Source: Pseudomonas phage TC6. From it: a DNA stretch of 49,796 nucleotides. Location of the stretch: the sequence record MG676466.1; one strand, given 5' to 3'. Shown in pieces: positions 1-48,307 of this stretch. The notes beneath the pieces were generated by a model. It was not told where the DNA came from and did not search any database. It saw nothing but the letters and a program-made list of their open reading frames with translations. The translations under genes were made by a program, and so were the position numbers. Every line of letters starts with the position of its first letter. Within the stretch, counting starts at the first letter, position 1.

Positions 1-229
1 GGGGGTTCATTAGGTGCATTGACACTAAAAATTTTCTAGCAGAAATTCCTCCCACTAAAAAGTGGGCCTTAAGGTTCTCCTCATGTAGTGACAGGGAGTT
101 ACTATGTAGGTGTTCTTCTCATGAAGAGGAGGACATACTAACATGTAAGAGGACTATACGCCTTCGGCACTTAATGCTAAAGGTACCATTGCTCACGCAA
201 GTGAGCGTTAAGAATAATAAGAGACTCTT

Positions 230-6405: not shown

Positions 6406-6411
6406 GAGATT

Positions 6412-6528
6412 ATCTTCTAAAAAAAGTATATACTATGTGTATAATATATTTATATATATATATATATTAGTATTATTATAATTAGTAATATTATTATATA
6501 TTAATTAACATAATTACTTAGAGGTATA
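6412..6528. promoter_or_regulatory. AT-rich intergenic region with TATAAT -10 hexamer (about 6439-6444, TG just upstream) and (TA)n palindromes
   Basis: About 85% AT. Contains tgtgtataat (a sigma70 -10 consensus with adjacent TG), the palindrome agtatatact and an (at)n run. Lies directly upstream of the scaffold and capsid genes. Confidence 0.5.
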
Positions 6529-6530
6529 CT

Positions 6531-21356: not shown

Positions 21357-21392
21357 GAGCAGGGGCCAAAAAGGCCCCTTTTCTTTTACCAA
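21357..21392. terminator. bidirectional rho-independent terminator at convergence of the two modules
   Basis: Hairpin gcaggggcc-aaaaa-ggcccct flanked by T/A runs on both strands. Confidence 0.7.
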
Positions 21393-21398
21393 AAATTA

Positions 21399-21620
21399 TT
21401 AGCATTTATAAGTGATTGTTTGTGCAGGCAATTGCATGACTTTGCTCAAGTCCTTATAAGTAGGTGATACTTTAACCTCTGGGGTTACTTTATTGAAGAC
21501 AGTCTGAAGATGCTGTTCAATTACCTCCATAGTCTCTTGTGTAGCACCTAATCTATGATCTATAGTTCTCTTAAGTTCAAAGTACCCTTGCAACCAATAG
21601 CAAAACTGTTCGGGTGTCAT
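21399..21620 (-). CDS. hypothetical protein
   Basis: Start refined to MTPEQF with RBS GGAGGT. Preceded by conserved motif copy C. Confidence 0.45.
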   Translation of the reverse strand: MTPEQFCYWLQGYFELKRTIDHRLGATQETMEVIEQHLQTVFNKVTPEVKVSPTYKDLSKVMQLPAQTITYKC

Positions 21621-21625
21621 ATTAA

Positions 21626-21677
21626 CCTCCAAAAATTTTTCTAGCAGAAATTCACGTCATTGAGCATTGCATTATCC
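21626..21677 (-). promoter_or_regulatory. conserved promoter/leader element copy C
   Basis: Minus-sense sequence GGATAATGCAATGCTCAATG...TAGAAAAATTTTTGGAGGT shares its core with copies at 41401-41455, 45981-46035 and 1-48. Confidence 0.45.
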
Positions 21678-23363
21678 TTCACAAGCTACGCACTCCCCTT
21701 TACTTGCCTGCACTCCTGCTTTGGTTCGCATGTAGTAGAGGGACTTGATTTGCGGATTGAGTAGAGCTTCTTTATGGATTTGAGCAATGTAAGCCTCGCT
21801 TTCGTTAGCGTCAAAGAACAAGTTAATAGACTGAGCTTGACAGATGTAAGGTTGTCTAGCTGCTGCTAGTCTAACCAGAGCTGCTTGATCCACCTCATAA
21901 GCCGTCTTGAATACAGCCTTCTCTTTCGGACTAAGCCAATCAAGATGTTGTACACTACCCTCAGATTTGATTAAGTCTTTAACGAGTTCGTCAGTCCAAC
22001 CAACACGTTTCTTTGCCAGGTTAAGAAAGACAGGATTGACCCTGTAAATTTCCCCTGCGGAGGTTGGTTGATTGTACAGATTTGCAACCACCGGCTCAAT
22101 ACCTTGGGAGACGCCCCCACAGATAAGAGCAGAAGATGTGTTGGGGGCAATAGCAAGTAGATGAGTGTTCCTAACACCATAACCTTTACACCATTCAGGT
22201 TCACCCCAAGCTTTTGCCATCCACTTCGTAGCACGAGTGGCCTCCTCATGTAGATGTTGGAAGATTTCTAAGTTAATCATATGAGCCTCGAAAGACTCAA
22301 GTGGAATCATCTTAGCTTGCAGATAGGTGTGGAAACCAAGGGCTCCAAGCCCAAGAGCCCGGCTTGCCTCAGTGAATCTAACACTCTTTTCAAAACCCTT
22401 TTGTCCCTTGGCGAGTCGGATAAACTCTTGTGCAACGCAGTCAAGAAACACTGTAGACACGAACACTGCGTCTGTGTTTTTCCACTCATCATACTTCTCC
22501 AAATTCATGGACGACAGAACACAAGTGAATGTATGGTCTGCGTCACTAAACAATGTAATCTCAGTGCAAAGGTTAGAGGCTTTAACTTCAAGACCTCTGT
22601 CCTTATACATCTGAGGGTTCATGGCGTTAACTGTATCAGGCTTAAAGAAATAGCCCTTACCAGTGATGGCCTTAACATACATTGCCCTTTGGAAGCGTTG
22701 TACAGCGTCTGTGTCGCCAGCTTCTAGACGGTTGATGAAGTCTTGACTGATGTTCCAACCAATGTTTAGATCATCAGGGAAGTTCTTCAAGTAGTCTACG
22801 ATTTCGTAGAAGTCTCCGTGGTCAATAGGTAGATGCCCTGACCATGCTCCTCTCCGAGAAGTTCCTTGTGCAACATCTCGCATGTCTTGGACAAAATGCT
22901 TAAAGATTGGGAGAGTACCTGAAGCTTTTCCTCCGGTACTGATGACGCTTCCACGAGGTCTGATATCGCCGAGATAGCCCGACGTACCGAAGCCATTCTT
23001 TGTAAGCATAGCCGTTTCGTGGTAGGCTGAGTAGAATCCATCAATGCTGTCCTCAATATATTGACCAGAGCAGCTTACTGGCATACCTTTGATTGTACCC
23101 ATGTTACTAAGAACAGGAGTAGAGGCAGCAAGCCAGCCGCGCCAAAGAACATCAAAAAACTTAGAGGCCCACTTGTCAGGGTCGTCAGTGTGTCGTGCAG
23201 CAGTTTTAGCAATGCGCTCGTAGGTGTCTTTGAGTCCTCTTGCTTCCCACAAATATTTCTCTTTAAAGAGTTGGAACCCACCTGTGGTGAACCACTCTGG
23301 GTACAACCCCTCCTTTTGTAATTGTTTTCGCTCTTCTGACAGCTTCTCATAAATACTAGTCAA
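21672..23363 (-). CDS. nrdA: ribonucleotide reductase class I alpha subunit (no ATP-cone)
   Basis: NLCTEI active-site motif and C-terminal CxxC...C tail. The ORF-track start overlaps the upstream gene by 127 nt, so the true start is probably internal (a TTG near 23363). The start is uncertain. Confidence 0.8.
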   Translation of the reverse strand: MTSIYEKLSEERKQLQKEGLYPEWFTTGGFQLFKEKYLWEARGLKDTYERIAKTAARHTDDPDKWASKFFDVLWRGWLAASTPVLSNMGTIKGMPVSCSGQYIEDSIDGFYSAYHETAMLTKNGFGTSGYLGDIRPRGSVISTGGKASGTLPIFKHFVQDMRDVAQGTSRRGAWSGHLPIDHGDFYEIVDYLKNFPDDLNIGWNISQDFINRLEAGDTDAVQRFQRAMYVKAITGKGYFFKPDTVNAMNPQMYKDRGLEVKASNLCTEITLFSDADHTFTCVLSSMNLEKYDEWKNTDAVFVSTVFLDCVAQEFIRLAKGQKGFEKSVRFTEASRALGLGALGFHTYLQAKMIPLESFEAHMINLEIFQHLHEEATRATKWMAKAWGEPEWCKGYGVRNTHLLAIAPNTSSALICGGVSQGIEPVVANLYNQPTSAGEIYRVNPVFLNLAKKRVGWTDELVKDLIKSEGSVQHLDWLSPKEKAVFKTAYEVDQAALVRLAAARQPYICQAQSINLFFDANESEAYIAQIHKEALLNPQIKSLYYMRTKAGVQASKGECVACEG

Positions 23364-30640: not shown

Positions 30641-32486
30641 TTGAACATTCTAGTTCTCTGTTAAGATTTAAGAATTTATTTGTCTTATCCATAGCTCTAT
30701 GTAGCAACGCTGTACATTGCTCTCTAAATCCCTTCCTAATACATAGGACGACTTCATCATGGAATTGCGCAGTGAGTTGTGGCCGCTCCTCCCGGATGTG
30801 CCTAACCCATGTATCGAAACAGTAAACTCCCGTACCTTGGTTTAGTGTTGAGAACCTATCTTTTTCATGACGTAAGCTGTACCAGAATCCACTAACTGGA
30901 TTGAACAACCACTTCATTCCATTGCACACCTTAACTATCTGGTCTTCAGCAATACGTTTGACTGACCAGTTACGTTGCCAATATGCATCTACCAGTTTGT
31001 ACCCCTCATCCATGGTTACCCCAGCAGTGATGGCCACACGTGGACCACCAGCCCCATACACGCACGCATAGTTAACGCTCTTATACACCTTCCTAATAGC
31101 TTTAACTAGCCCCTCCTCTTCTTTCTTAAGGAAGCCTGCTTTATACAACTCTACTTCGTGAGAAGAAAGTGCCCCAGCAAACACCGCCAAGTCGAGGTGT
31201 GGGTCGAAGTCTGGTTTAATCATCTCCTTTACATACTCAGGGTCATAGGGCCACATGTAATGTTGCTTACATCTGTCCTCCAAGCTGCTCATATCACTAC
31301 CAACCAGCTCATAACCTTCAGGAGCAACCAGACAACCACGTATATCAGCGCCATAAGGCTTGTCAACACCCGGAAGGTTGACCACCACCTCATGCTTAAA
31401 TCGCAACGTGTTGGTGAGTCCTTGCACTTTGGCTTGGACATAACCTTCATCATCCACGTTGTTTAAGAACCCGTTTAGAACGGAGATACGGTGAGTTAGA
31501 ATCGAGAGTCCGTCAAGAATTTCTAGCTTTGGCTCTTTACCATAGAGCTTTTTAACGCTAGCACACAAGCCAGGACCAAGAGTTTTATCTTGCTGTACTT
31601 GTTCAATCTTCTTAACTTCCCCAGTTTCCTTGTTTCTTTTATATGCAAAAGTCTCTGGCACCCAACCTAGGCTGTACAACCAAGACTTAATTTGCTCGTG
31701 TGAGCCAGGATTAGGTTCCTTCCAATCCTTAATGTACTCAACTACTCCTTCGTAATCTTCGGGCAGCCCCTGCTCTTCCAACAACGCAACCCAAGCTTTC
31801 CCCTGTTCGCTTAAAGTGTTTGGCTTATTCTTTAGATACATCTTCTTAGGCTTTTCCTTACTTGCCATTACTGGCACATGAGGCATAGCCAATCTAAGCT
31901 CTTCTACTTTTTCTTCTTTTAACTTTTCTAGTTTCTTTAAAGTGGTCTTACAATGTACTACATCTAGCTTCCATCGACTACGCTCTTGTTCAGCAGCACA
32001 ATCCATTTTGAACATAATGTAGTCAATGAACTTCCAAACTTTATCTGGCTCACCATACAACTTGGAGAGTTGTTTCCATTGGCGTTCCCACAGTTTGGTA
32101 TTAATCTTTACGTCTTCTTCACATCGATGTATATATTCCTCTACGGCTAGGTTTTCCCAATCATCGACTTTCGGCTTAGGAACACCAAACTCTTCACCCC
32201 ATTCAGCTAGGCCATGCCTCTTCCTAGCTGGCTCCAAATACCAAGAGAGTGGTAGTGTATCAACAAGTTTACACTCTACTTTGATATTTAACAATCTCTC
32301 AATATTTGGAATGTCATACCTGTAAATATTGTGACCACCAATAATCTTAGCGTTTCTAAAGAACGACCTCATCTTATCGTAGTCAGTGGTTGAAAAGAGT
32401 TTACCATTCTTCATGACAGAAAGACAATGAATCTTAGTAGGCTTCAAGCCATCAGCTTCAATGTCAAAAATGTCAATCAATGCCAA
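30606..32486 (-). CDS. DNA polymerase, family A (T7-like, exo+pol)
   Basis: Exo I motif DIFDIEADGL, polymerase motif A region and motif C QFHDEVV. Confidence 0.85.
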   Translation of the reverse strand: MALIDIFDIEADGLKPTKIHCLSVMKNGKLFSTTDYDKMRSFFRNAKIIGGHNIYRYDIPNIERLLNIKVECKLVDTLPLSWYLEPARKRHGLAEWGEEFGVPKPKVDDWENLAVEEYIHRCEEDVKINTKLWERQWKQLSKLYGEPDKVWKFIDYIMFKMDCAAEQERSRWKLDVVHCKTTLKKLEKLKEEKVEELRLAMPHVPVMASKEKPKKMYLKNKPNTLSEQGKAWVALLEEQGLPEDYEGVVEYIKDWKEPNPGSHEQIKSWLYSLGWVPETFAYKRNKETGEVKKIEQVQQDKTLGPGLCASVKKLYGKEPKLEILDGLSILTHRISVLNGFLNNVDDEGYVQAKVQGLTNTLRFKHEVVVNLPGVDKPYGADIRGCLVAPEGYELVGSDMSSLEDRCKQHYMWPYDPEYVKEMIKPDFDPHLDLAVFAGALSSHEVELYKAGFLKKEEEGLVKAIRKVYKSVNYACVYGAGGPRVAITAGVTMDEGYKLVDAYWQRNWSVKRIAEDQIVKVCNGMKWLFNPVSGFWYSLRHEKDRFSTLNQGTGVYCFDTWVRHIREERPQLTAQFHDEVVLCIRKGFREQCTALLHRAMDKTNKFLNLNRELECSIEYGDSYSDIH

Positions 32487-32976
32487 CTTGCCCCTTCAAC
32501 TCTTCTCTAAAGTTGTACACCATACGGCTAACAAAAGCTGCGTCAGCATCAGTTACTTCTACAATTTCCCTAGGCTTATAGCCCAAGATAAAATACAGAT
32601 GGAGAACATCAGCAACGTTTGATGGACGCTCGGCGATAGCTCTGTCAATAAACTTTCGTAGACCACTTTCAGTTTGAGAGAGTACCACTCCATCTACTTC
32701 TTCCTCATCGAATTCTTCACACATACCATATCGGCGTTCATCCCTCTTAAAGTCTCGAAGGGCATTATTAAGAATGGAATTGAACCAAGCTCCCAACTCT
32801 TTTCGTTCTGGGTCATAAGAGTTCCAATACTTCAATGCTCTGGAGAAAGCTTCTTGAACAATGTCTTCTGCGTTCTCAGGAGTACCAGCACGGAACGACA
32901 CACGCTTTACCAATTCATTGTAGTTGTTCTTAAAGAACCTGCCCATAATCAGGTTACGAGCTTTCACATCAACCAT
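32473..32976 (-). CDS. ECF-like sigma-70 family sigma factor
   Basis: Region 2-like DIVQEAFSRALKYW...ELGAWFNSILNNALRDFKRDERR and region 4-like HTH VADVLHLYFILGYKPREIVEVTDADAAFVSRMVYNFREEL. Confidence 0.6.
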   Translation of the reverse strand: MVDVKARNLIMGRFFKNNYNELVKRVSFRAGTPENAEDIVQEAFSRALKYWNSYDPERKELGAWFNSILNNALRDFKRDERRYGMCEEFDEEEVDGVVLSQTESGLRKFIDRAIAERPSNVADVLHLYFILGYKPREIVEVTDADAAFVSRMVYNFREELKGQVGID

Positions 32977-35330: not shown

Positions 35331-35624
35331 TTATGTAGAAATATGATTACGAACAAGGATATCGTTAACACACTTATCACGATCTTCCTCGTCAATGTAT
35401 CCGTTAGGGTTGTTCTGCCCACCTACATAACCCCACTCGTAAATACTTCGCAGCCATCCAGGTAAGTCAGATAGCTTTGCGCACAGTGCTGCGACTTCCT
35501 CCCTGAGCGCCTGGGCCTCTTCGGCGAGGTCGTCGTAGTCCTGGCTAAGGACGAACTCCCCGAATTGGCTTTCTTCCCAGCCATAGATATTTCCAACCGG
35601 GCTGATCTTCTTCACCTCACTCAT
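35331..35624 (-). CDS. hypothetical protein
   Basis: 97 aa. Its N-terminal third lies within the GC-rich island. Confidence 0.4.
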   Translation of the reverse strand: MSEVKKISPVGNIYGWEESQFGEFVLSQDYDDLAEEAQALREEVAALCAKLSDLPGWLRSIYEWGYVGGQNNPNGYIDEEDRDKCVNDILVRNHIST

Positions 35625-36966
35625 GGATCAGTCCTCCCGATACAGGTCGTATTTGCGGCAGATGGCGTCCATTTCCGGGCGCGGCGGCGAGAGATCGCAG
35701 ACCATCATGGATGGCTCGCAGGTCGTCGTCGGTCGGCTCTGTGCGCAGGTACAGAACTACGGAGCGCGGATAGGCGAAGTCTCGTCCGATCCCTGACACC
35801 TCCGGCACGCTGTGCTGAGCCTGGGCTACAGGGGCGGTGTAGAGCTTCGTGCCCGACGGTATGCCTTTCAGGTCGCGATAGAAATGAAGGCCGTTCCAGT
35901 CTTCACCCGGCACCCTCGCAACGGTCGCCACCGGCTCCTGCTTCTCCATCTCCGCCAGTTTGGCGTTGGCGTCCATCAGCAGCGCGCAATAGTTGTCTGC
36001 CATAGTTTTCATATCTGCGACCCTGGCCAGGGCGGCGTCGCGCTCTGCCGTGCGGCCCGAAACCAGACCATCAAGACGAGCAATTTCCGCTTCCCGTTCC
36101 CGGATTTCGTTCTGCAAGGCTCGGTAGGTTTCCTGGCCGGAATCCATGTAATCGTTCTTGTGCTGGCGGAGCTGGGCTATCACCGCCCGCAGTTCCCCGA
36201 CGATGCACTCATGCTGGGCGACGGTCATCAGCGATTGATATTCGCCGCCGGATTTCCATTCATCGAGACATGCCTTGTCGCTGACGATTCCGCCTCTGGA
36301 GTCGTAACGCCACGCCACCACCTCCGGCCGCTCCGCCTCTGCCTGCTCGGCTAGTGCCTCGGTCGCGTCCTCCACGAAGAACCCGCAGTGCCGGCACTCG
36401 CGGCCGGTCTTTGTCACGCCGTTGCGGTTCCACCAGACGCCATAGAAGTCGTGCCGGCAGGTCTGTTCGGTGGTGGTGCCGCGCTCGGCCAGGTCCGGCG
36501 CAGGGGAGGGTTGCGCTAGGGCGGCGTAATAGACGGGAGTGCCAACCGGCATTTCCCACGCGCTACGGTCTTTTGCCCATTCGAGATATCGTGAGGTTTC
36601 ATCACCCGCAACGTGTGCTACGGGAGCGATTGAAATTGGGCGGTCCGCCTCGGTGCCTTCAGGCATAGGCCCCCATTCTGTAGCCTGATTTCGACGGTCT
36701 TGATAAGCCTGTTGCTCTTGCCTGGCTTTCTCTCGCAAAGCGTCAGCCATCTTCGCCATAGGCGATTCATCGGCTACAGGGGTGCTTGCCAGGGCGGCGC
36801 GGGCTTGCCAGGCCATCCAGTACGATTGCGTCTGCGCCAGTTTGTAACAGTTGCCGGAGCGCTCAACCGCCTTCGGGTAGATTCCTTCATCACTGGCCCA
36901 GTATTCGAACTTGGCGCGCTCATCCCCGCCTGCCTGCTCTACCGATTCCTTGTTCAGTTCGCTCAT
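35617..36966 (-). CDS. hypothetical protein encoded in GC-rich island
   Basis: 449 aa ORF in a 60-68% GC segment, with Cys pairs (CRHDFYG...CRHCGF) and a C-terminal coiled coil. The overlapping ORFs on other frames are GC-driven artefacts. Confidence 0.5.
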   Translation of the reverse strand: MSELNKESVEQAGGDERAKFEYWASDEGIYPKAVERSGNCYKLAQTQSYWMAWQARAALASTPVADESPMAKMADALREKARQEQQAYQDRRNQATEWGPMPEGTEADRPISIAPVAHVAGDETSRYLEWAKDRSAWEMPVGTPVYYAALAQPSPAPDLAERGTTTEQTCRHDFYGVWWNRNGVTKTGRECRHCGFFVEDATEALAEQAEAERPEVVAWRYDSRGGIVSDKACLDEWKSGGEYQSLMTVAQHECIVGELRAVIAQLRQHKNDYMDSGQETYRALQNEIREREAEIARLDGLVSGRTAERDAALARVADMKTMADNYCALLMDANAKLAEMEKQEPVATVARVPGEDWNGLHFYRDLKGIPSGTKLYTAPVAQAQHSVPEVSGIGRDFAYPRSVVLYLRTEPTDDDLRAIHDGLRSLAAAPGNGRHLPQIRPVSGGLIHE

Positions 36967-37715
36967 TTCAATTCCTCAAACCTTTTGACATAACCTTCGA
37001 GCGTCGTGCCATCAACTCCTGGAGCTGTATTGACTTCCAGCACGTATGCTTGCTGTTCCTTCTCGTTGAAGATGACGTCTGCTGCACCGAAGTCAAGTCC
37101 ACAGGCTTCAACAGCCTTAATAGCTTGTTCAATAATGTCTTCATGAGGTTTAATTCCTTCGTTACGTGCAAAGATAAAACCACCACCAATGTTCCTAATC
37201 TTCCAATTCACTTCGTCATCAGGAACATCTTTCTTACGTGCTTTTCTTTGAATATCTACACATTCACCACGGAACACATGAATTCGCCACTCTTGTTTCT
37301 TGGGCACATACTTAGTGTACAGAGGTGCATCAACAAGCTCATCATCACCTGGCCCTACAAGTACAATACCCTTACCACTGTTTGCATTTAGCAAAGTACG
37401 ACATACTACAGTGTTGCCACCATCCACCCATTTAAGGGCCTCAGCTTTCTCTGTAGTGGATTCTGGTGTACGGGCATGCCCTACCATTGCCTCGAAGAAA
37501 GAACGCTTGTTAGCGGCCATAGAGACGGCTACAGAGGTATTAACAACCGTACACTTAAGAACTTCTTCTGGAAGGTTGCTACTACCCCAGTTAATCACCA
37601 CTTTATCTGGGGAGCCTTTGAACTTAGAGTTCTTATGCTTAATAAATTTTACATTAAGCATGTCCTTGATTTGCTTACCAGCCTTACTGGCGTTATTGTA
37701 CGCATAGATAAACAT
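36963..37715 (-). CDS. ATP-grasp ligase
   Basis: C-terminal VLEVNTAPG and glycine-rich GKGIVLV, typical of RimK/GshB-type ATP-grasp enzymes. Confidence 0.65.
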   Translation of the reverse strand: MFIYAYNNASKAGKQIKDMLNVKFIKHKNSKFKGSPDKVVINWGSSNLPEEVLKCTVVNTSVAVSMAANKRSFFEAMVGHARTPESTTEKAEALKWVDGGNTVVCRTLLNANSGKGIVLVGPGDDELVDAPLYTKYVPKKQEWRIHVFRGECVDIQRKARKKDVPDDEVNWKIRNIGGGFIFARNEGIKPHEDIIEQAIKAVEACGLDFGAADVIFNEKEQQAYVLEVNTAPGVDGTTLEGYVKRFEELK

Positions 37716-38662
37716 TAGAACGGCACTCCTTCTTCAACCCAAATCGGTGGGAAGATTTCTTTTGGTACTTCAGCAAAGAACGCAACGGGATCAAAGTCAT
37801 AGTTAAGAACTTCCTTTCTCGGTGCTGGTACAGGCGGAACAATCTCTTCTTGGAAGAACTGTTGCCAATCACAACAGAAAGCAATGTCCTGTGCTCGTCG
37901 CATACCATCGTTCAACATCTTGGGTACGTTGTCATAGTCTTTAAACAACTCTACATGCTCACCAAGACATTTATTAAGGAACGCTACGTAGTCCCCCTCA
38001 GAATAACTGTTGATAATATCCTTAGGATCAGTAAACTTCTTAGCAGCTTCACGAAGATCAACAAGAATATTAGCCCATTTATGAATGAGGTTTAGATCAC
38101 GAGTGCCACGCATAGCACGGAACTCAAGACTGCCATACGTACCCAAAGCCTTGACGTTCATAGAGCCATAGCGAAGATTATCGTCAGTCAGAATGCGTCT
38201 GAACTGTCGAGTACGTGCTGCCTCTGACAACCTAAACAACAGCCATTCTGCGTCACAAGCACGAAGGCAAAACAAATTGCCCTCTCGATATGGACCACAG
38301 AACTTAACCAAAAGTTCCTCAAGAGTAAGGTAGAGCGTCATAAAGTTATAAAGCTCTACAATGTTTAGTTGCTGAACGTTGATATGCACATGGACACCAG
38401 CACGTACCGTGTCATCAACAACTGAATTGTTCTTCTTGTATTGCATGTTAAGATGGCTTAGAGCAAGCTTAACTTGACGGAGAGTCATAGGTTTTTCTAG
38501 GACATACTCTGCGTTATCTTCGCCACGAAGAGAGCCGTCAGCCTCTACTCTCCAATACCTATCAAAAGCTTTGGGCAAGTTCTTACCCTCCACTTCAATC
38601 TCTACACCAACATCACCCTTGGTGGGTAGTTGGATGCCGAACCATTGCATTACAGTTTTCAT
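37715..38662 (-). CDS. amidoligase (Amidoligase_2 / GS-like family)
   Basis: VGVEIEVEG motif near the N-terminus and HVHINV, characteristic of the phage-associated GS-like amidoligase family. Confidence 0.55.
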
Positions 38663-39228
38663 AGCACCTCCTGTAGTGCTTCACGAAGAAACATAAACTC
38701 ACCGCTCAGTTCTGGATTACCGTCTCTCACACAACCAACAATCAGGTTTTTGTAAATGAGTGGCCTATTATTTTTCAATTTACTATCGCCAACAGCCCAC
38801 TCCCTACACCAAGCTCTCAATACTCTAGCTGGTGAATCAACACACTCTTGCAAAGTTGGGTAGATGCCTTCAATAGTATCTGCTAACGCATTGTAGTTAA
38901 CTAGATCGGCAGGAGTGCCGTATACTGAAGTGAAGTTTCCAATTCGTAGCCCTTGTCTCCAATCCCTACGCATTGGCATGCGAGTAAGGTAAGAGATTGC
39001 ATTGCCAATATTGGCAAAACCTAGCTTTACAGGAGTCAAGTCTAGGTCGTCAAGGTTAACAATATTACCCTCACCACCTCGAAGAGAAGTGATCAGGACT
39101 CCTTTCTTCATCACCTTGTTAACAAAGACCCCCTTACCTTCATGCCTAACAATAGTATTGTTAAGTCGGGAGTCTGCATATTGCCAATCATCACCATACA
39201 TATTCATGTTACACCTGCTTGATAACAT
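38659..39228 (-). CDS. hypothetical protein (ligase cluster)
   Basis: 189 aa. Start overlaps the upstream stop. Confidence 0.35.
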
Positions 39229-40072
39229 AATCCCCTAGGAAGCCCTTTTCGGCCAGTACAAATCCAGGCGGCATAGGGATTTTGTTTTTACCAAGGAGAT
39301 ATGCTAGGTTTCTTTCATCAGGTTTAGCTGATACGCCGAGTGACCGAACAGTGTCGTCATATTCCTCATTGTAAGCAGGCTTACCCTCAAGGAGTTTTTT
39401 GATGCCAAGCACAGTATTTTTAAATACCCACTTCATAAGTGCTTTATCTTTCAACCAAGCGTTGGACAACACTCGATACTCAACACCATACGGCTTAGGA
39501 CGGAATGCTCCCATAGCACCATAAAGAGTACGACGCTTCACTTGCTTATCATAAAGAAGGCTGGGCAACCCAAGGTAATAGTCAAGCTGTTTTGCTGCCA
39601 TGCAGCACGCCTCAATGTGGTCAGGATCACTGATATCAATGTCATTTCCCCAACCAATGTGTACGTGACCAGCACCAGTACGGAAGTCTACTTCAGCATT
39701 GGGGCGAGGATTAGCTGCACCGTTTTCATAAGCGTTGAAGTCAGGCTCGCACCCAAGTTCTTTCGCTTCGTCAGGTTGGCCTTTGATATAATCGAAACCG
39801 AATTCAGCAACCGGAGATGGGTTCAATTCGAACCCAGGTACCATACCCTTAAGGGTGGACATTACCGTAGTTAGGTTGCGTACAAATTCTTTCTCATCTT
39901 TAGCCGGATCAATGTTGAACTCAAGCGCCATGCCATCTACTTGGACAGCACCCTTGTCAACCTTGAAAGGTTCTTTCTTGTTGCCAGGAATGGCACCATG
40001 CGCTGATACGAATTTGCCGTCCTTCATCATGAAGATTTCCGGGTCAGCGCCAACCAGAATATTCAGACTCAT
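39209..40072 (-). CDS. carboxylate-amine ligase, GCS2/YbdK-like (second amidoligase)
   Basis: VGADPEIF, MALEFNIDP and TGAGHVHIGW motifs resemble the glutamate-cysteine-ligase-2 / GS-like fold. Confidence 0.5.
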   Translation of the reverse strand: MSLNILVGADPEIFMMKDGKFVSAHGAIPGNKKEPFKVDKGAVQVDGMALEFNIDPAKDEKEFVRNLTTVMSTLKGMVPGFELNPSPVAEFGFDYIKGQPDEAKELGCEPDFNAYENGAANPRPNAEVDFRTGAGHVHIGWGNDIDISDPDHIEACCMAAKQLDYYLGLPSLLYDKQVKRRTLYGAMGAFRPKPYGVEYRVLSNAWLKDKALMKWVFKNTVLGIKKLLEGKPAYNEEYDDTVRSLGVSAKPDERNLAYLLGKNKIPMPPGFVLAEKGFLGDYVIKQV

Positions 40073-40081
40073 ATCGTTTAC

Positions 40082-41395
40082 CTATGCTTGTTTAAGATAT
40101 TGTTTAACGTCAGGAAACTCTTTACAACTACCGCAAACAAAATTGTGCTTGTCCAACCACAACAAATCGTTAGCATCACTTTCATCTACGGGACTACTAC
40201 ACCATGAACAACATTTTTCTGTGCGTTGTTCATATACAACCCTACTAACAACTTCACCACCATATACAACAAATGTCTCAGGTGGAGTGTCGTCAGCAGT
40301 ATTACCAAGCTCAATAATCTCTTCGACTGTACGGAGATCAATGGTCAAATAGCCTTTTTCAGAGCTACTATACGACTTAACATGAGCCTTAAAGAAGTTA
40401 GAAGAGTTAAGCATCTTGTGCCAAAGCTCGCTACCTTCTCCAGCGTAACAACGAATGGAGACTAGGTCGTTGTCACATGCCCAGCATTGCAGGAACTTTT
40501 GGTTGTAGTTATTAGTTGAAACCTTATCGACGTAGAAGTCGCATGATTTTCCTACAAACCTTTGATACTCCGCAAATCCCGCTGCTGGCGTGGACTTTCC
40601 CACATTGGTGGCTGCCGAAAAGACGTTATTAGCAGCCGTAGAGGTAGTAGACGCCACTACGGCTTTCTGAAAATTTTGACGAAGCTCCAGTTTCCTAGTG
40701 CGACATTTTTCCAGAGGCTTATATTGATATGGGGAGCCGAGGGGAATGTCAAAGCTGAAGTGGATGCCAATGGGTACAGAGAAAATTTCTCCAAACTTCT
40801 GGCCAGCCATGCCACAAGCAACTTCAATCATCCAATCTTCACTAGCCCAAATAATCGCTTTACGATCTTCGGTGAAACAGTAGTAGAGGGGTCGCTCACT
40901 GTTACGAATGAAGTTAATAGTGCTCTCTTCCTTGTTATACCAAGTGAGTGCGAATGCACCATCTAGAACTTTGACAGTTTCTGCTACACCATTACGCTCC
41001 ATGTGATGGTATAGGTTCTCACTGTCCACTTCAAACTGAGTGTTATCGTCCAGATCACGAACAGAACGAAGAGTTCCGTTATGGGCACCTACTAGCGTAT
41101 CAAAATCGAAGGGGTGGGCGTTCTTAGCAGAGATTTTACCTTTGGTTGCCCAACGGTTATGCCCCAGCAGGACATTGAAAGAACCACCCTTAAGGTACTC
41201 TTCAAAGTCTTTACTGTCGAACAGCCCCTCCCAAGGAGTACCAAGCTTCTTGACAACTTTATTGTCGCCATTAGTACGCACCATAGCTACACCAGTGCTA
41301 TGAGGGCCACGTACAGTGTCAAGTTGAAGAAGACAGCGGAAAGTTTTTTCCAAGTTAAACGTAACAGCGCCTGCAACACCGACGAGTCCACACAA
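40082..41395 (-). CDS. class II (Ntn) glutamine amidotransferase domain protein with Cys-rich C-terminal domain; TTG start
   Basis: Begins M-CGLVG (N-terminal nucleophile Cys) with GHNRWATKG...NAHPF. C-terminal half has CWACDN and CCSWCS...CGSC clusters. GGAGGT lies 5 nt upstream of the TTG. Confidence 0.65.
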   Translation of the reverse strand: MCGLVGVAGAVTFNLEKTFRCLLQLDTVRGPHSTGVAMVRTNGDNKVVKKLGTPWEGLFDSKDFEEYLKGGSFNVLLGHNRWATKGKISAKNAHPFDFDTLVGAHNGTLRSVRDLDDNTQFEVDSENLYHHMERNGVAETVKVLDGAFALTWYNKEESTINFIRNSERPLYYCFTEDRKAIIWASEDWMIEVACGMAGQKFGEIFSVPIGIHFSFDIPLGSPYQYKPLEKCRTRKLELRQNFQKAVVASTTSTAANNVFSAATNVGKSTPAAGFAEYQRFVGKSCDFYVDKVSTNNYNQKFLQCWACDNDLVSIRCYAGEGSELWHKMLNSSNFFKAHVKSYSSSEKGYLTIDLRTVEEIIELGNTADDTPPETFVVYGGEVVSRVVYEQRTEKCCSWCSSPVDESDANDLLWLDKHNFVCGSCKEFPDVKQYLKQA

Positions 41396-41400
41396 ATTGC

Positions 41401-41455
41401 ACCTCCAAAAATTTTTCTAAAGTAAATGTCGGCCATTGGCCATTGCATTATTCGA
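41401..41455 (-). promoter_or_regulatory. conserved promoter/leader element copy A
   Basis: Minus-sense sequence TCGAATAATGCAATGGCCAATGGCCGACATTTACTTTAGAAAAATTTTTGGAGGTG. Confidence 0.45.
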
Positions 41456-41948
41456 CATGTTTTCTGTAGCCTGCGTCGTACAGGATTTCGCAGAAGCGTT
41501 TAAGCGTCGTCGACCAGTGGAAGCTATCGAAGGCACCGAGCATCTCGCTGATTGCCTTTTCACGCCCCTCGGCGGCGATCTGTTCAGCGGTGCGGATGGG
41601 GCGCACGCCGTGCCCATTGCGAGGGTAATACTTCCCCTTGTGGCTGATAACAGCGAACACGCCATCATGACCAATGACGCGACCTTTCGCCCAGCCGATA
41701 CTGCCCAGGTTCAGCGAGAACTCACACTCGATGCCAACGGGCGGCAGGCCCTGGCCGTCCCAGGACTCTTGCGGAATAGGTACGTAATAGTCAGGCATGA
41801 ATCCTTTGTCGAAACTGTTGACCATGAACCATTTGCCTTTGTAGTGTTCATACGCAACAGTACCTTCGATTTTTCGCCAAGGATTTATGTCATCGTGTAT
41901 GTGGTAGTGCGTCGCACCATCTGGTGCCTTGCTCCAGTCAATGCTCAT
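41448..41948 (-). CDS. hypothetical protein
   Basis: 166 aa Trp/Tyr-rich ORF. Confidence 0.4.
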   Translation of the reverse strand: MSIDWSKAPDGATHYHIHDDINPWRKIEGTVAYEHYKGKWFMVNSFDKGFMPDYYVPIPQESWDGQGLPPVGIECEFSLNLGSIGWAKGRVIGHDGVFAVISHKGKYYPRNGHGVRPIRTAEQIAAEGREKAISEMLGAFDSFHWSTTLKRFCEILYDAGYRKHVE

Positions 41949-41959
41949 GTTGTGTCCTT

Positions 41960-42148
41960 TTATTTAAATGGTCTGTCGCCGAATTTACTCAGATAAATTT
42001 CTAATGCAGCATCAGCTTCGGTCTGAGCTGTTTGGTTTTTAAAACCATTTTGCTTAGAAGCAATAAAGTTTGCCTTCCAAAATTCTCTTTTATCTAACTC
42101 AAACGCGACACGTGCTCGTCTCTCTTGCTCTTCATCCGTCCGACTCAT
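41960..42148 (-). CDS. small hypothetical protein
   Basis: 62 aa charged ORF. Confidence 0.3.
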   Translation of the reverse strand: MSRTDEEQERRARVAFELDKREFWKANFIASKQNGFKNQTAQTEADAALEIYLSKFGDRPFK

Positions 42149-42771
42149 GCTTTTAATCCCAGATAACGATTAAGCAATTCAAAATAGTAGTCACGAGTGC
42201 TGTCAGCGTTATAAGACTCTGGGTGTGGCTGGAAGCACAAAGACTTGGTGTTGTCGTAATACACTACCTCTACATCTGCCTCATTAGCCAAGAATACGCT
42301 ATCATAGCTTTCCTTAACTTTAGACTCATAGGCAACAGCAATGATTTCTCCATTGTAACCTGGAATCATCATTTGATGGTGAGTGGAAGTTACTGAAAGT
42401 TGTTCACCAGAGAATCTGTCTTCGAGGTCATGTTCCCTACCTTTCGCATGGCCGTTAACATGTTGGTACATCTTACCACCATTCATGACATTAAGAAACT
42501 GGCCACCACGACAAATGCCTGCCATACGAATTTTGTTTCGCTGGGCAAAGGCAAAGTAACCTGCCTCTTCCAAGTCACGTCTTTCATTGTGATAGGTCTT
42601 TGGATGGACGCCTTCACCATACAACATAGGTGTTACATCTTCACCTCCAGTAAATTGGATTAGGTCTGCTGTGAAGAAGTCTTTAATGCTACCTACTTCC
42701 CAACCCATGCGCTTAAACATCTCAGCGTACTGGCCATTCCCGTTGATAATAACTACTTTAGGCACGTCCAA
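42145..42771 (-). CDS. class I glutamine amidotransferase-like / peptidase C26 (gamma-glutamyl hydrolase-like)
   Basis: GICRGGQFLNV nucleophile elbow and CFQPHPE His-Glu region. Confidence 0.55.
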   Translation of the reverse strand: MDVPKVVIINGNGQYAEMFKRMGWEVGSIKDFFTADLIQFTGGEDVTPMLYGEGVHPKTYHNERRDLEEAGYFAFAQRNKIRMAGICRGGQFLNVMNGGKMYQHVNGHAKGREHDLEDRFSGEQLSVTSTHHQMMIPGYNGEIIAVAYESKVKESYDSVFLANEADVEVVYYDNTKSLCFQPHPESYNADSTRDYYFELLNRYLGLKA

Positions 42772-43690
42772 TCTCCTTCATAATTTCATGTTCGAAAGCT
42801 GCCATAGCTTCAATACCCTTCCAATATGAGACGGAGCCGCCCCCTTCTTTGGGCTTAGCTTTCTGAAACGGATTGACGCCTTTGTCGGCCTCAGCTTTCA
42901 CTTTAAAGTTGGCATCTAGCCACTGGCCCATATTATTTCGTGGCTCTATCATTCCCCAACCATTACCTTGCTTATTTTTATGCAGATACATCCTATCGTA
43001 ATAATTATACTGTACACACTCAGAGTATGGCTCATTTGGGGTTGTGACTTTGTGATCAAGCCATGCACACAAAGCTTCTTTATCAAAGAAGTGTGGGTTC
43101 ATAGAGCAATGACCACTGTGGCAAGTCAAGAAATTAATATTGCCTGCCCTATTCGCCCTTGCTTGGCTCTTATGAGCCACCCAAAAAGCCAAGTCTTCAT
43201 TCATACCAGCATGCACCAAGTCATGCCACACGATTAGAATGTGATTGGCTTCCCACAAACGACGAGAAGCTACCAGTCCAGCGGCCAACAGATTAGAGGG
43301 AGCACTACTGTCTGCAATGATACAACTATTTTTAATAGCGTCTTTAGCAGACTTAGTAACAAACACCTTACTGTATGGGCTTCGATTAAGAAGCCAATCT
43401 AGATAGGCTTCTCCCTCTTTAGTATTGAGTAGGTTGCCTATATATTTAGGTTGGAGACCGCTAATCACCGCAATCGAATTAGTCGGCAAACTCTTCAAGC
43501 CAAAGTGGCAAACTTGGTTTGTACTCACTTGCAAGTGATCTTTGTACGCATGATTTTTGTACACAGCGCCAACACTTGCCATGTACGCTGCGCATAATTT
43601 GTAATGGCCATCAACTTTCCCCTTGCCGAGTAGAATTTTCTTAAATACTTTCCTGGCTTTTAACGCAATGAGGTAGTGTTCCCGTTTCAT
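42758..43690 (-). CDS. hypothetical protein
   Basis: 310 aa with His-rich motifs (HDLVHAG, CHSGHC). Confidence 0.4.
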   Translation of the reverse strand: MKREHYLIALKARKVFKKILLGKGKVDGHYKLCAAYMASVGAVYKNHAYKDHLQVSTNQVCHFGLKSLPTNSIAVISGLQPKYIGNLLNTKEGEAYLDWLLNRSPYSKVFVTKSAKDAIKNSCIIADSSAPSNLLAAGLVASRRLWEANHILIVWHDLVHAGMNEDLAFWVAHKSQARANRAGNINFLTCHSGHCSMNPHFFDKEALCAWLDHKVTTPNEPYSECVQYNYYDRMYLHKNKQGNGWGMIEPRNNMGQWLDANFKVKAEADKGVNPFQKAKPKEGGGSVSYWKGIEAMAAFEHEIMKEIGRA

Positions 43691-44622: not shown

Positions 44623-44705
44623 TGGCGCAGGAGGCGGGGTTCGAACCCGCATTTTCAGCTCCAATTACCCTTATCAATTTAGAAGACTGATGGGGCTACT
44701 CCCGC
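44623..44705 (-). other. tRNA-like element (acceptor stem + T-arm + encoded CCA), non-canonical D/anticodon region
   Basis: Minus-sense GCGGGAG...GCGGG-TTCGAAC-CCCGC-CTCCTGC-G-CCA. The T-arm has a perfect 5 bp stem with a TTCGAAC loop. A 7 bp acceptor stem (one G-U) is followed by a discriminator and CCA. The middle 46 nt do not fold into a canonical D or anticodon arm. Confidence 0.3.
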
Positions 44706-45131
44706 ACGACCTTTAAATCCACCCTTTGACCTTGTGAATTTAGCATTACAAGACCTAGAGCAGAAAAGATTCTTCTTGCCAGCTACTTGATTGGCCCATT
44801 TTCTAAATTCACAACTACAAAAAGCACATGACACCACTAAAGACTTTCTTTCTTTTCTATCAAAACATGTCTTCTTCATATGGTCTGACTTGCTAAGTAC
44901 TTGTAAGTTTTCTAACGAGTCGTTAGTCTTATCTCCATCTATGTGGTCAACTTCTTCAGACTTATCTAGTAGCCGCGCTAAGTGCACTGATACCACATAC
45001 TTAGCGTAGGATATTGTTGTTCTATCTTTGTTTGAGTTAAATAGGTCAACCCTTGCTCTGTCGTCCTTACATTTTCTGACATACCCATATTTATAAAGTT
45101 CTTTGTACGGGCTTTGTAATTCTATCTTCAT
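44679..45131 (-). CDS. HNH homing endonuclease
   Basis: VDHIDGDKTNDSLENLQVLSKSDH HNH motif with a C-terminal Cys cluster. Its last 9 codons read into the tRNA-like element. Confidence 0.7.
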   Translation of the reverse strand: MKIELQSPYKELYKYGYVRKCKDDRARVDLFNSNKDRTTISYAKYVVSVHLARLLDKSEEVDHIDGDKTNDSLENLQVLSKSDHMKKTCFDRKERKSLVVSCAFCSCEFRKWANQVAGKKNLFCSRSCNAKFTRSKGGFKGRAGVAPSVF

Positions 45132-45599: not shown

Positions 45600-45974
45600 T
45601 TAGATAACAGGCCTGTAGGCCATAATATCTAGGTTTACACCTATATGGTCCCAATAAAGAGCATTGCCATCCGCCTTTATCCCAAGTTCCCAGAATGTTC
45701 CATTGCGAAACCTAACTTCAAATCTATCTCCAGGTTTGCCAGGGTGCTTACCGCCACGATGGCGAATCCAAGACACTCGGTAGGCTACAATATCTCCCTC
45801 ATCATTGAGATGAGACCATACATTGTGGTTAAAATCTAACCAAACAATTCTCATAGAAGTCTTATAACCATCCCTGTAGATAACATCTACTTTAGTTCCA
45901 TAAGGAACAGGACATTCACCGCCGTTCCATTCAATCCATTCATTGCCGGGGCGAGCTTTAGGAAGCTTCAACAT
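45600..45974 (-). CDS. hypothetical protein
   Basis: Start refined to MLKLPKARPG with RBS GAGGGT. Preceded by motif copy B. Confidence 0.45.
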   Translation of the reverse strand: MLKLPKARPGNEWIEWNGGECPVPYGTKVDVIYRDGYKTSMRIVWLDFNHNVWSHLNDEGDIVAYRVSWIRHRGGKHPGKPGDRFEVRFRNGTFWELGIKADGNALYWDHIGVNLDIMAYRPVI

Positions 45975-45980
45975 GATTAT

Positions 45981-46035
45981 ACCCTCGAAAATTTTTCTAA
46001 TATAAAAGCCAGCCATTGCCCATTGCATTATTCGA
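45981..46035 (-). promoter_or_regulatory. conserved promoter/leader element copy B
   Basis: Minus-sense sequence TCGAATAATGCAATGGGCAATGGCTGGCTTTTATATTAGAAAAATTTTCGAGGGT. Confidence 0.45.
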
Positions 46036-46296
46036 GCTTAGCTGGCTAGGTCTGCCATTTTGCAGACAATAAAAATAGCGTACACTACTATGAGCATACG
46101 CATAAAGAAAACATCACTGTTCATTGACCTAGCCCGTCCTTGAAACCGCGCCAGTAATACGTCTTCAATTCCTCAGTGAGCGAACAAACGTAATTCAACG
46201 AATCAGTGAGAATTCGTTTGCCTAATGACTTTTCTACCACATGGTAGAACCCCATCTCATACGCCGACAACTCTTGTTCTTCCCTACTAGCTATCA

Positions 46297-46488: not shown

Positions 46489-46496
46489 AATCACGC

Positions 46497-46631
46497 TCCA
46501 ATTTAGGAGAAACGACTTTATTTTAAGTAGTATACTAACGTATAACTATTAGTATATATATACTAAGAGGGAGGAGTTGGGGTACGAAGTAAACCAACCA
46601 ACTACGACCCTTAGTAATAATATATAATATA
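46497..46631. promoter_or_regulatory. AT-rich region with 16-nt perfect palindrome tagtatatatatacta and agtata repeats
   Basis: About 75% AT intergenic region with iteron-like repeats. A candidate origin or promoter cluster. Confidence 0.4.
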
Positions 46632-47725: not shown

Positions 47726-48307
47726 ATTAGTTCCTCCTAGGTTTAGGTTGAACGTTCTGCTCTGCACTATACGCTTTATCAGTGCGCTGCATTGGTAATA
47801 CAGAACGTTCACCTAAGTCTAAAAAGACTTTGCCCTTCGCGGGACTTCGTAGGGGTGCACCCTGCACACTGCTACGGCTTACACTTCTTAGCGTTCGCGT
47901 TTGTCAGACGCTACTAACTCTCCCCGTGCTATGGCTGCAAGCTACAGCCCGTCTCTAACTATCCTAGAGCCCGATACGGATGCCTGTATAGTAGGCATTA
48001 CTGGCGTGTTCTACAAACCTTCCACGCTTTGTACCGTCCGCTTTCATGCGCTCACCTTGAGGCCGAAGCCAGCTAGCGCTTTACTTACTTAGGCCGCCCC
48101 CTGTCGGGACGTACTGTTTGAGCTTTGTAAGCCTCCAGGCCCGTTTGCCTTTGTTGGGAGCCATATTACCACTTTCTGTCGCTTTGTCAAGCCCTAAAAT
48201 TTTCTTAGGGAATCTCAAGCCGGCCAGCATCGCATTTCCCGTTATCGACGCCTGAGTGGTTAGGCTATGTAGACCAGTAGACATTAGTAGACACTCTTTC
48301 GAGTGCC

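Follow-up and report, generated by a model that had tools for sequence, protein, structure and literature searches.

Three full copies of a 60-nt element lie on the minus strand of the 49,796-nt stretch of Pseudomonas phage TC6 DNA analysed here (the window), and two short boxes within the element recur, at a nearly fixed distance from one another, in phages of other genera. With somewhat better than even confidence, we read the element as a compact cassette that joins a promoter to a ribosome-binding site and that would represent a phage-specific, middle-type promoter class. The two boxes, the spacer between them, the A/T-rich stretch that follows, the co-orientation with genes and the location at operon heads or in tandem with other promoters most likely denote a sigma-70-family promoter with a non-host consensus. 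In the layout that we propose, the upstream gene ends with TAA or TAG and is followed by a -35-like box (core ATGC or ATGG, consensus R-ATGC-Y-R), a spacer of 18 bp here and 17 bp in other genera, and a -10-like TAGAAA with 7–8 nt of A/T-rich sequence. Transcription would start at or just before GGAGG, the Shine-Dalgarno sequence, with the start codon 5–7 nt on. The reader would most likely be the host core RNA polymerase together with the two-domain, ECF-type sigma factor of the phage. The three copies would head, or in one case tail, blocks of middle and DNA-metabolism genes, and genes would be gained, lost or exchanged exactly at the downstream edge of the element. A first-pass annotation of the same DNA had named the element a candidate promoter; its strand-specific and intergenic placement, its position at the heads of gene blocks and its conservation across genera support that claim, but the anatomy proposed there is not supported.

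Copies of the element and their genomic setting

The window comes from a PA11-like Pseudomonas phage (Zobellviridae, genus Paundecimvirus). Its 40–47 kb stretch shares 98% identity with Pseudomonas phage PSA11 and 86–97% with PA11, O4, K4, IME180, Ty and others, all of them Paundecimvirus. Virion and lysis genes occupy the plus strand from 230 to 21355, and early, middle and DNA-metabolism genes run along the minus strand from about 49445 down to 21399. The two ends of the window are contiguous in PSA11 and PA11, with 38 additional bases between them, the IME180 record was deposited as circular, and the relative Klyazma (L111) is annotated with 711-bp direct terminal repeats (1–711 and 49588–50298) at the junction of the late and early blocks. 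The start of the window is therefore arbitrary or terminal, and an arbitrary start, as suggested in the first-pass annotation, is borne out by the contiguous ends and the circular record. In the light of the Klyazma repeats, the window may lack one terminal-repeat copy or begin inside that region.

A repeat-family search returned the three copies at 70–82% identity across 60 nt, with nhmmer E-values from 6e-18 to 6e-22; the triple repeat is real and far beyond chance. Copy-to-copy identity within the window is 0.71–0.80 over the element and 0.15–0.35 over its flanks. Exact TAATGCAATG occurs four times in the window, three of these within the full copies, and TAGAAAAATTTTT, allowing up to two mismatches, has nine matches against 2.5 expected. 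The copies and the features next to them are these:

41396–41455, minus strand: c41, full copy, the locus described in the first-pass annotation; found as a repeat, by nhmmer and by profile matches
Within c41, minus strand: stop codon TAA of the 166-aa gene at 41450–41448, inside TAATGCAATG at 41450–41441; -35-like ATGGCC at 41443–41438; 18-bp spacer; -10-like TAGAAA at 41419–41414; AATTTTT; GGAGGT at 41406–41401; start codon TTG at 41395
45976–46035, minus strand: c46, full copy; TAATGCAATG at 46030–46021; -35-like ATGGGC at 46023–46018
Within c46, minus strand: TAGAAA at 45999–45994; AATTTTC; GAGGGT at 45986–45981; start codon ATG at 45974, opening a 124-aa protein (PHROG 9174)
21620–21679, minus strand: c21, full copy; stop codon TAA of the large ribonucleotide-reductase subunit at 21674–21672, inside TAATGCAATG at 21674–21665
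Within c21, minus strand: -35-like ATGCTC at 21667–21662; TAGAAA at 21643–21638; GGAGGT at 21630–21625; start codon ATG at 21620 of a 73-aa gene (21399–21620)
48193–48241, minus strand: c48, diverged full copy; ATGCTG at 48230–48225, 17 bp, TAAGAA at 48207–48202
48190–48163, minus strand: canonical sigma-70 promoter directly after c48; TTGACA at 48190–48185, N16, TAATAT at 48168–48163
46078–46101, minus strand: hairpin and T run resembling a terminator, about 40 nt ahead of c46, at the end of the early block

Read in the minus sense, c21, c41 and c46 run ATAATGCAATG..CAATG, a spacer, TAGAAAAATTTT(T/C), G(G/A)GG(G)T and a start codon 5–7 nt on. This is the order that had been described before, with small differences: c21 has the variant GGATAATGCAATGCTCAATG, and c46 has TTTTC and GAGGGT. 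In both c21 and c41, the upstream gene stops at the TAA within ATAATG. Four copies had been listed, of which those at 41, 46 and 21.6 kb are full; the one placed at 1–48 is partial and matches the 3′ half, and c48 had been overlooked.

The TTG that follows c41 is the start of a class-II glutamine amidotransferase, and c41 stands at the head of a gene block of about 20 kb that has only three intergenic gaps longer than 25 nt and includes the sigma gene. The minus-strand interval 35617–43690 encodes class I and class II glutamine amidotransferases, a COOH–NH2 ligase, an amidoligase and an ATP-grasp enzyme. This cluster, which lies in the c41-headed block and the genes just upstream, is kept from PA11 to CW02 and Klyazma. 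In the region 47813–48162 (minus strand), the sigma-70 promoter at c48 is followed first by an open reading frame that corresponds to ORF056 in the PA11 annotation and is unannotated in O4. Beyond it lies a gap of 268 nt, rich in GC hairpins, in which we saw no convincing open reading frame and no Rfam match; it could be a non-coding early RNA. A small open reading frame beginning at the ATG of TAATG was also considered, with similar peptides (MQW.MA..Y.RKIF) in c41 and c46, and was rejected: the frame closes after six codons in c21 and in FBPa8 and PPAT, and the likeness of the c41 and c46 peptides is a by-product of their shared DNA.

The two-box core and the predicted start site

Distant loci were fetched by way of the sigma protein (37–44% identity) and the large terminase (70–83%). 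A profile trained solely on 15 sites from relatives outside Paundecimvirus had as its four best matches in the window c41 (E = 2.8e-6), c21 (1.8e-5), c48 (6e-3) and c46 (2.3e-2), with c1, the partial element near the window start, in fifth place. The common core is R-ATGC-Y-R, 17 bp (18 in c21, c41 and c46) and TAGAAA(AT). At the distant loci it takes the form of a stop codon, R-ATGC-Y-R, 17 bp and TAGAAAAT(A)ATTT, a degenerate version of the same architecture. R-TGC-N2 and TAGAAA are 17 bp apart in 14 of the 15 distant sites and 18 bp apart in one distant site and in c21, c41 and c46; the spacer of c48 is 17 bp. Two boxes at 17 ± 1 bp have the -35/-10 spacing of bipartite sigma-70-family promoters.

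The arrangement is tied to one strand. The strict pattern R-TGC-N19/20-TAGAAA occurs six times, against 0.9 expected, in five sigma-centred loci, each time on the gene strand, and a further ten times in the terminase loci, always on the early-gene strand. All 23 profile matches (E < 0.05) in 820 kb of relatives, eight non-training sites among them, fall on the early/middle-gene strand, and the window copies, all on the minus strand, are co-oriented with the genes that they would serve. In relatives, sites lie upstream of the amidotransferase block and of the operon of primase/helicase and sigma genes. The complete genome of Pseudomonas phage GP100 holds five to seven sites, all on the early/middle strand and all before gene starts, and their first box reads GGAATGC. 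Other searches returned little: an exact two-box scan of IMG/VR, with a pattern too genus-bound, gave PA11, O4 and chance matches only; five distant loci were searched for repeat families and had none; and a 56-nt consensus site, compared with phage records by BLAST, gave noise only.

The first-pass annotation had likened TAATGCAATGG to a single -10-like element and had suggested that the A5T5 tract could be a translational enhancer. On this reading, transcription would start about 8 nt downstream of the box, and TAGAAAAATTTTT would be a conserved enhancer in the 5′-UTR. In its favour, the AATGCA in the box matches the phiEco32 element AATGTA at five of six positions (PMC12276001), TAATGCAATGC recurs in three other lineages (L038, L040 and L045), and the A/T tract is fixed at 7–8 nt from GGAGG. 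However, the information in the 15 foreign sites peaks at ATGC and, more strongly, at TAGAAAAT-ATT, strictly 17 bp apart and with no conserved box further upstream of ATGC, so that the 3′ end of TAATGCAATGG is -35-like and the TAGAAA within the supposed A5T5 leader is -10-like. TAGAAA is also kept where no Shine-Dalgarno sequence follows, before seven sigma-70 promoters and before the 5′ end of a GP100 tRNA, which speaks against a translational enhancer, and among PDB chains the phage sigma has no detectable similarity beyond ECF-type sigmas. We consider a single-box anatomy rather unlikely.

A resemblance of the same box to the single element in sigma-dependent middle and late promoters of other podoviruses had also been noted. 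In coliphage phiEco32, the middle and late promoters read by its sigma gp36 have a single AATGTA element, centred at -11.5, which marks non-early genes (PMC12276001). Like the phage studied here, phiEco32 is a podovirus with a small sigma-70-family protein and a non-host consensus. Unlike the phiEco32 element, the present one has two boxes 17–18 bp apart, with the stronger conservation in the downstream one, TAGAAA. The resemblance is superficial. Among PDB chains, the phage sigma has detectable matches to ECF-type sigmas only.

Under the two-box promoter reading, the start site can be placed from its surroundings. GGAGG begins 7–8 nt past TAGAAA at nearly all mRNA sites, and the GP100 tRNA begins exactly 8 nt past it. 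These constant distances suggest that transcription starts there, on the Shine-Dalgarno sequence or on the first tRNA base, so that the mRNAs would begin with the Shine-Dalgarno sequence itself. Three observations count against the promoter reading. A start at the predicted place would leave the Shine-Dalgarno sequence with hardly any leader in front of it, an unusual arrangement; TAGAAA lacks the sigma-70 T at -7; and ATGC differs from the GGAAC/CGT signature of typical ECF promoters. The GP100 tRNA (L109, 2034–2106) has the anticodon UUA, which would read the stop codon UAA.

At seven early-region sites (L032, L034, L038, L040, L047, GP100 and c48), a consensus sigma-70 promoter stands in place of GGAGG. 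The motif there lies at about -45 to -75 of that promoter and its A/T tract at the position of an UP element. Such sites are consistent with two boxes that form the binding site of a phage or host regulator, or an UP-like module, and that modulate sigma-70 promoters or block read-through; the ribonucleotide-reductase copy, which in most genomes has no gene to drive, is in keeping with this as well. We nonetheless judge it unlikely. An A/T tract at -40 to -60 of a core promoter, as an UP element would have, is found only at c48 and at the six sites in relatives, and the promoter scan found no core promoter downstream of c21, c41 and c46. After these three copies and most sites in relatives come only GGAGG and a start codon; where TTGACA is present, its distance from the motif is variable (11, 16, 23 and about 38 nt); and the motif is without dyad symmetry. 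A host sigma-70 consensus promoter, taken as at least 4/6 matches per hexamer and a -10 box with A second and T sixth, was not reported within c21, c41 or c46 by the same scan; TAGAAA ends in A. Manual sigma-54 and sigma-70 readings were dropped, each fitting at most one copy.

The tandem arrangement invites comparison with the middle promoters of phage T4, in which a MotA box, TGCTT, near -30 is combined with a sigma-70 -10 element. The element is like these in having a TGCT-containing upstream box in place of the -35, in standing in tandem with early sigma-70 promoters and in its middle-gene context. It is unlike them in that its -10-like box is without T at -7 and in that the phage has a sigma factor of its own. 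T4 middle promoters are also named in PMC12276001.

An element that acts in RNA would offer a different account of the same stretch, either as an intercistronic processing site or as a translational operator, with a nuclease, Hfq, ribosomal protein S1 or a phage repressor binding the AU tract. The element does lie between same-strand genes and is overlapped by the upstream stop codon, its AU-rich tract is 7–8 nt from GGAGG, and in c41, c46 and the copy of FBPa8 the first box is enclosed by short stems. No such stems occur in c21, however, and the folds gave z-scores of -0.48, -0.96 and +0.70 against shuffles; over six copies, folding was no better than in shuffled sequence except where a known terminator was included. 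Rfam, run over the window, gave a single match, to a tRNA elsewhere, and no family on the element. A strict, unpaired two-box spacing is atypical of RNA motifs, and some sites precede promoters or a tRNA and no coding start. We hold a role of this kind to be decidedly unlikely.

The phage sigma factor and the distribution of the motif

The first-pass annotation had also presumed a phage-encoded sigma factor, and the window does contain one:

32473–32976, minus strand: phage ECF-type sigma gene, 167 aa, directly after the primase/helicase gene; Pfam Sigma70_r2 at 1e-13; PHROG 1740

A phmmer search of this protein against PDB chains (E ≤ 1) returned cellular ECF and SigI sigmas only. ECF sigmas are its best solved relatives, and the alignment spans region 2 and the helix-turn-helix of region 4, so a two-box promoter is expected. 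Together with the host core RNA polymerase, this sigma is the most likely candidate reader of the motif. ECF sigma promoters have a -35 GGAAC, a spacer of 16–17 bp and a -10 CGT, and are often autoregulatory. Likenesses to them are the two-domain sigma, the bipartite motif with its strict spacing and the GGAATGC of GP100; the site that relatives have before the primase–sigma operon would likewise allow autoregulation. Unlike in ECF promoters, the -10-like box here is the A-rich TAGAAA and not CGT, and with GGAAT as the -35, the spacing would exceed the usual by about 3 bp.

GP100 and the IMG/VR relatives, whose sigmas are at least 37% identical to that of the window, have the motif; in GP100 the sigma is 45% identical and the large terminase, TerL, 74%. 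In CW02, where TerL is 75% identical, similar to that of GP100, and the sigma 30%, the motif was not found. It was likewise not found in Klyazma, which has a divergent sigma gene that escaped detection by tblastn with the window sigma. This pattern of presence and absence fits co-evolution of sigma and promoter; an effect of host genus would fit equally.

The late genes, on the plus strand, have no such motif. The phage sigma might therefore serve the late genes, with the motif read by host sigma-70 and a phage co-factor. Two candidate motifs for the late genes were rejected: TAATGC, as a general motif covering them, was not enriched and had its sole plus-strand intergenic case at 172, and TWACTATGTRK had ten matches against seven expected. 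Very AT-rich intergenic stretches with (TA)n-like runs occur at 6406–6530 (plus strand) and 46495–46631 (minus strand). The former lies upstream of the scaffold and capsid genes, where many relatives share ...AAAACTCAATATTTCTAGTATATAG, and may be a late-gene control region.

Gene content at the downstream edge and a separate element near the genome end

All five relatives that were fetched whole (PSA11, O4, PA11, Ty and FBPa8) have the same three copies in the same places, and the partial loci of K4, IME180 and PPAT have c41 and c46. When the window is compared with O4, Ty, K4, FBPa8, IME180 and PPAT, c41 and c46 are 0.91–0.96 identical and the 60 nt upstream 0.88–1.0, whereas the 60 nt downstream are 0.27–0.43 identical, near the 0.25 expected of unrelated sequence. 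The element is therefore a conserved island, with gene content changing at its downstream edge. What comes directly after each of the three copies varies, with genes present in some genomes and missing from others; O4-type genomes have an additional Cys-rich open reading frame after c41 and, after c46, an additional gene of about 120 aa. The c41 copy of FBPa8 and PPAT differs in its upstream gene and flank, and its spacer resembles that of c21, which suggests exchange between copies. The copies would act as homology patches because they are long and nearly identical.

At the ribonucleotide-reductase copy, two further features are relevant:

21362–21378, between converging gene blocks: hairpin GGGGCC-TTTTT-GGCCCC; the PA11 record has terminators on both strands at the corresponding place
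21389–21397, minus strand: AATTTTTGG, a repeat of the 3′ end of the element (21637–21629) that, with that copy, brackets the inserted 73-aa gene

In PA11, PSA11, O4, Ty, FBPa8, K4, IME180 and PP21, the hairpin between the converging blocks comes directly after the ribonucleotide-reductase copy. The 73-aa gene is inserted between ...TTTTTGG and AGGTTAATATG only in the window, HHBS10_2, PPAT and PPAY; the terminal gene of GP100, considered as its homologue, was rejected as not homologous. In at least eight relatives, then, the copy meets a terminator at once, so that a promoter there has nothing obvious to express, and yet the copy is well conserved. This counts against promoter function.

These homology breaks also raise the question of whether the element is merely left over from recombination, or is a small mobile sequence, and has no part in regulation. 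The edges of the element are where homology between genomes breaks, the 9-nt repeat AATTTTTGG brackets an inserted gene, and O4 has an HNH endonuclease gene inside c1. Yet the core is conserved across genera whose sigmas are 37–45% identical, it lies on the gene strand in every case and directly ahead of gene starts, and there are no terminal inverted repeats and no associated transposase. We regard a remnant without function as very improbable.

Gene shuffling next to a putative promoter has a parallel in T4-type phages, where cassettes called 'promoter-early stem-loop' (PeSL) reportedly flank shuffled ORFs. As in PeSL cassettes, repeated promoter-like sequences here border variable small genes, with evident recombination between copies. 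Unlike in PeSL cassettes, there is no conserved stem-loop, the stems differing between copies and being absent in c21; there are only three or four copies per genome, and a ribosome-binding site is included.

Returning to the promoter cassette, we found no description of promoters or transcription in PA11-like or related Zobellviridae phages in the literature searched, and the cassette most likely belongs to a family-wide motif that has no description there. We tentatively extend the proposal, as a possibility that we rate below the cassette itself. The motif (R-ATGC-Y-R, 17–18 bp, TAGAAA) could define an undescribed promoter class read by the ECF-type sigma of a Zobellviridae subclade, giving nearly leaderless RNAs, with the Shine-Dalgarno sequence or the first base of a tRNA at their 5′ end. 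The same cassette could be a portable junction for the capture, loss and exchange of genes, and the ribonucleotide-reductase copy may fire into the terminator to give a tiny RNA. Some PA11-like and related Zobellviridae phages are used or have been screened for therapy against P. aeruginosa. A promoter consensus tied to the phage sigma would give a testable map of the temporal programme, would supply an orthogonal sigma/promoter pair for Pseudomonas synthetic biology and would explain why gene content varies at exactly these points in the genus. If confirmed, mRNAs that begin at the Shine-Dalgarno sequence would be of an unusual design.

Two other loci of the window deserve mention. Rfam places a tRNA at 44626–44705 (38.7 bits) that was not called by ARAGORN, and an HNH endonuclease open reading frame at 44679–45131 (minus strand) overlaps its 5′ end. 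At about 45241–45211 (minus strand) there is a 5′ fragment nearly identical to the start of the intact tRNA-Arg of O4, and the tRNA-Arg locus seems to have been remodelled by insertion of the endonuclease. The second locus is the partial element near the window start:

25–54, minus strand: c1, partial; GAATTTCTGC, TAGAAA (38–33) and ATTTTT, then GTGTCAATGCACCTAATGAACCCCC

Only GAATTTCTGCTAGAAAATTTTT (about 25–54), which is common to c21, matches the full element (nhmmer E = 0.015). Within the copy that had been claimed at 1–48, no upstream or -35-like box, GGAGG/Shine-Dalgarno sequence or start codon is present. c1 is a separate, deeply conserved element that adjoins the genome end or the terminal-repeat region; in PSA11 it lies upstream of the first early open reading frame, by about 410 nt. 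It consists of TAGAAAAT followed by ATGCAC and is conserved more widely than the full promoter-like motif, with sites in the window, in CW02 (L110, 41253–41300) and, on the minus strand, in L045, L072, L079, L081, L090 and L095. The pattern GGAATTTCTG-CTAGAAAAT-N~11-ATGCAC-CTAAT-GAACCCCC is kept as far as CW02, a Salinivibrio phage. In FBPa8, c1 is present as two tandem copies, and in O4 it is the site of the HNH endonuclease insertion.
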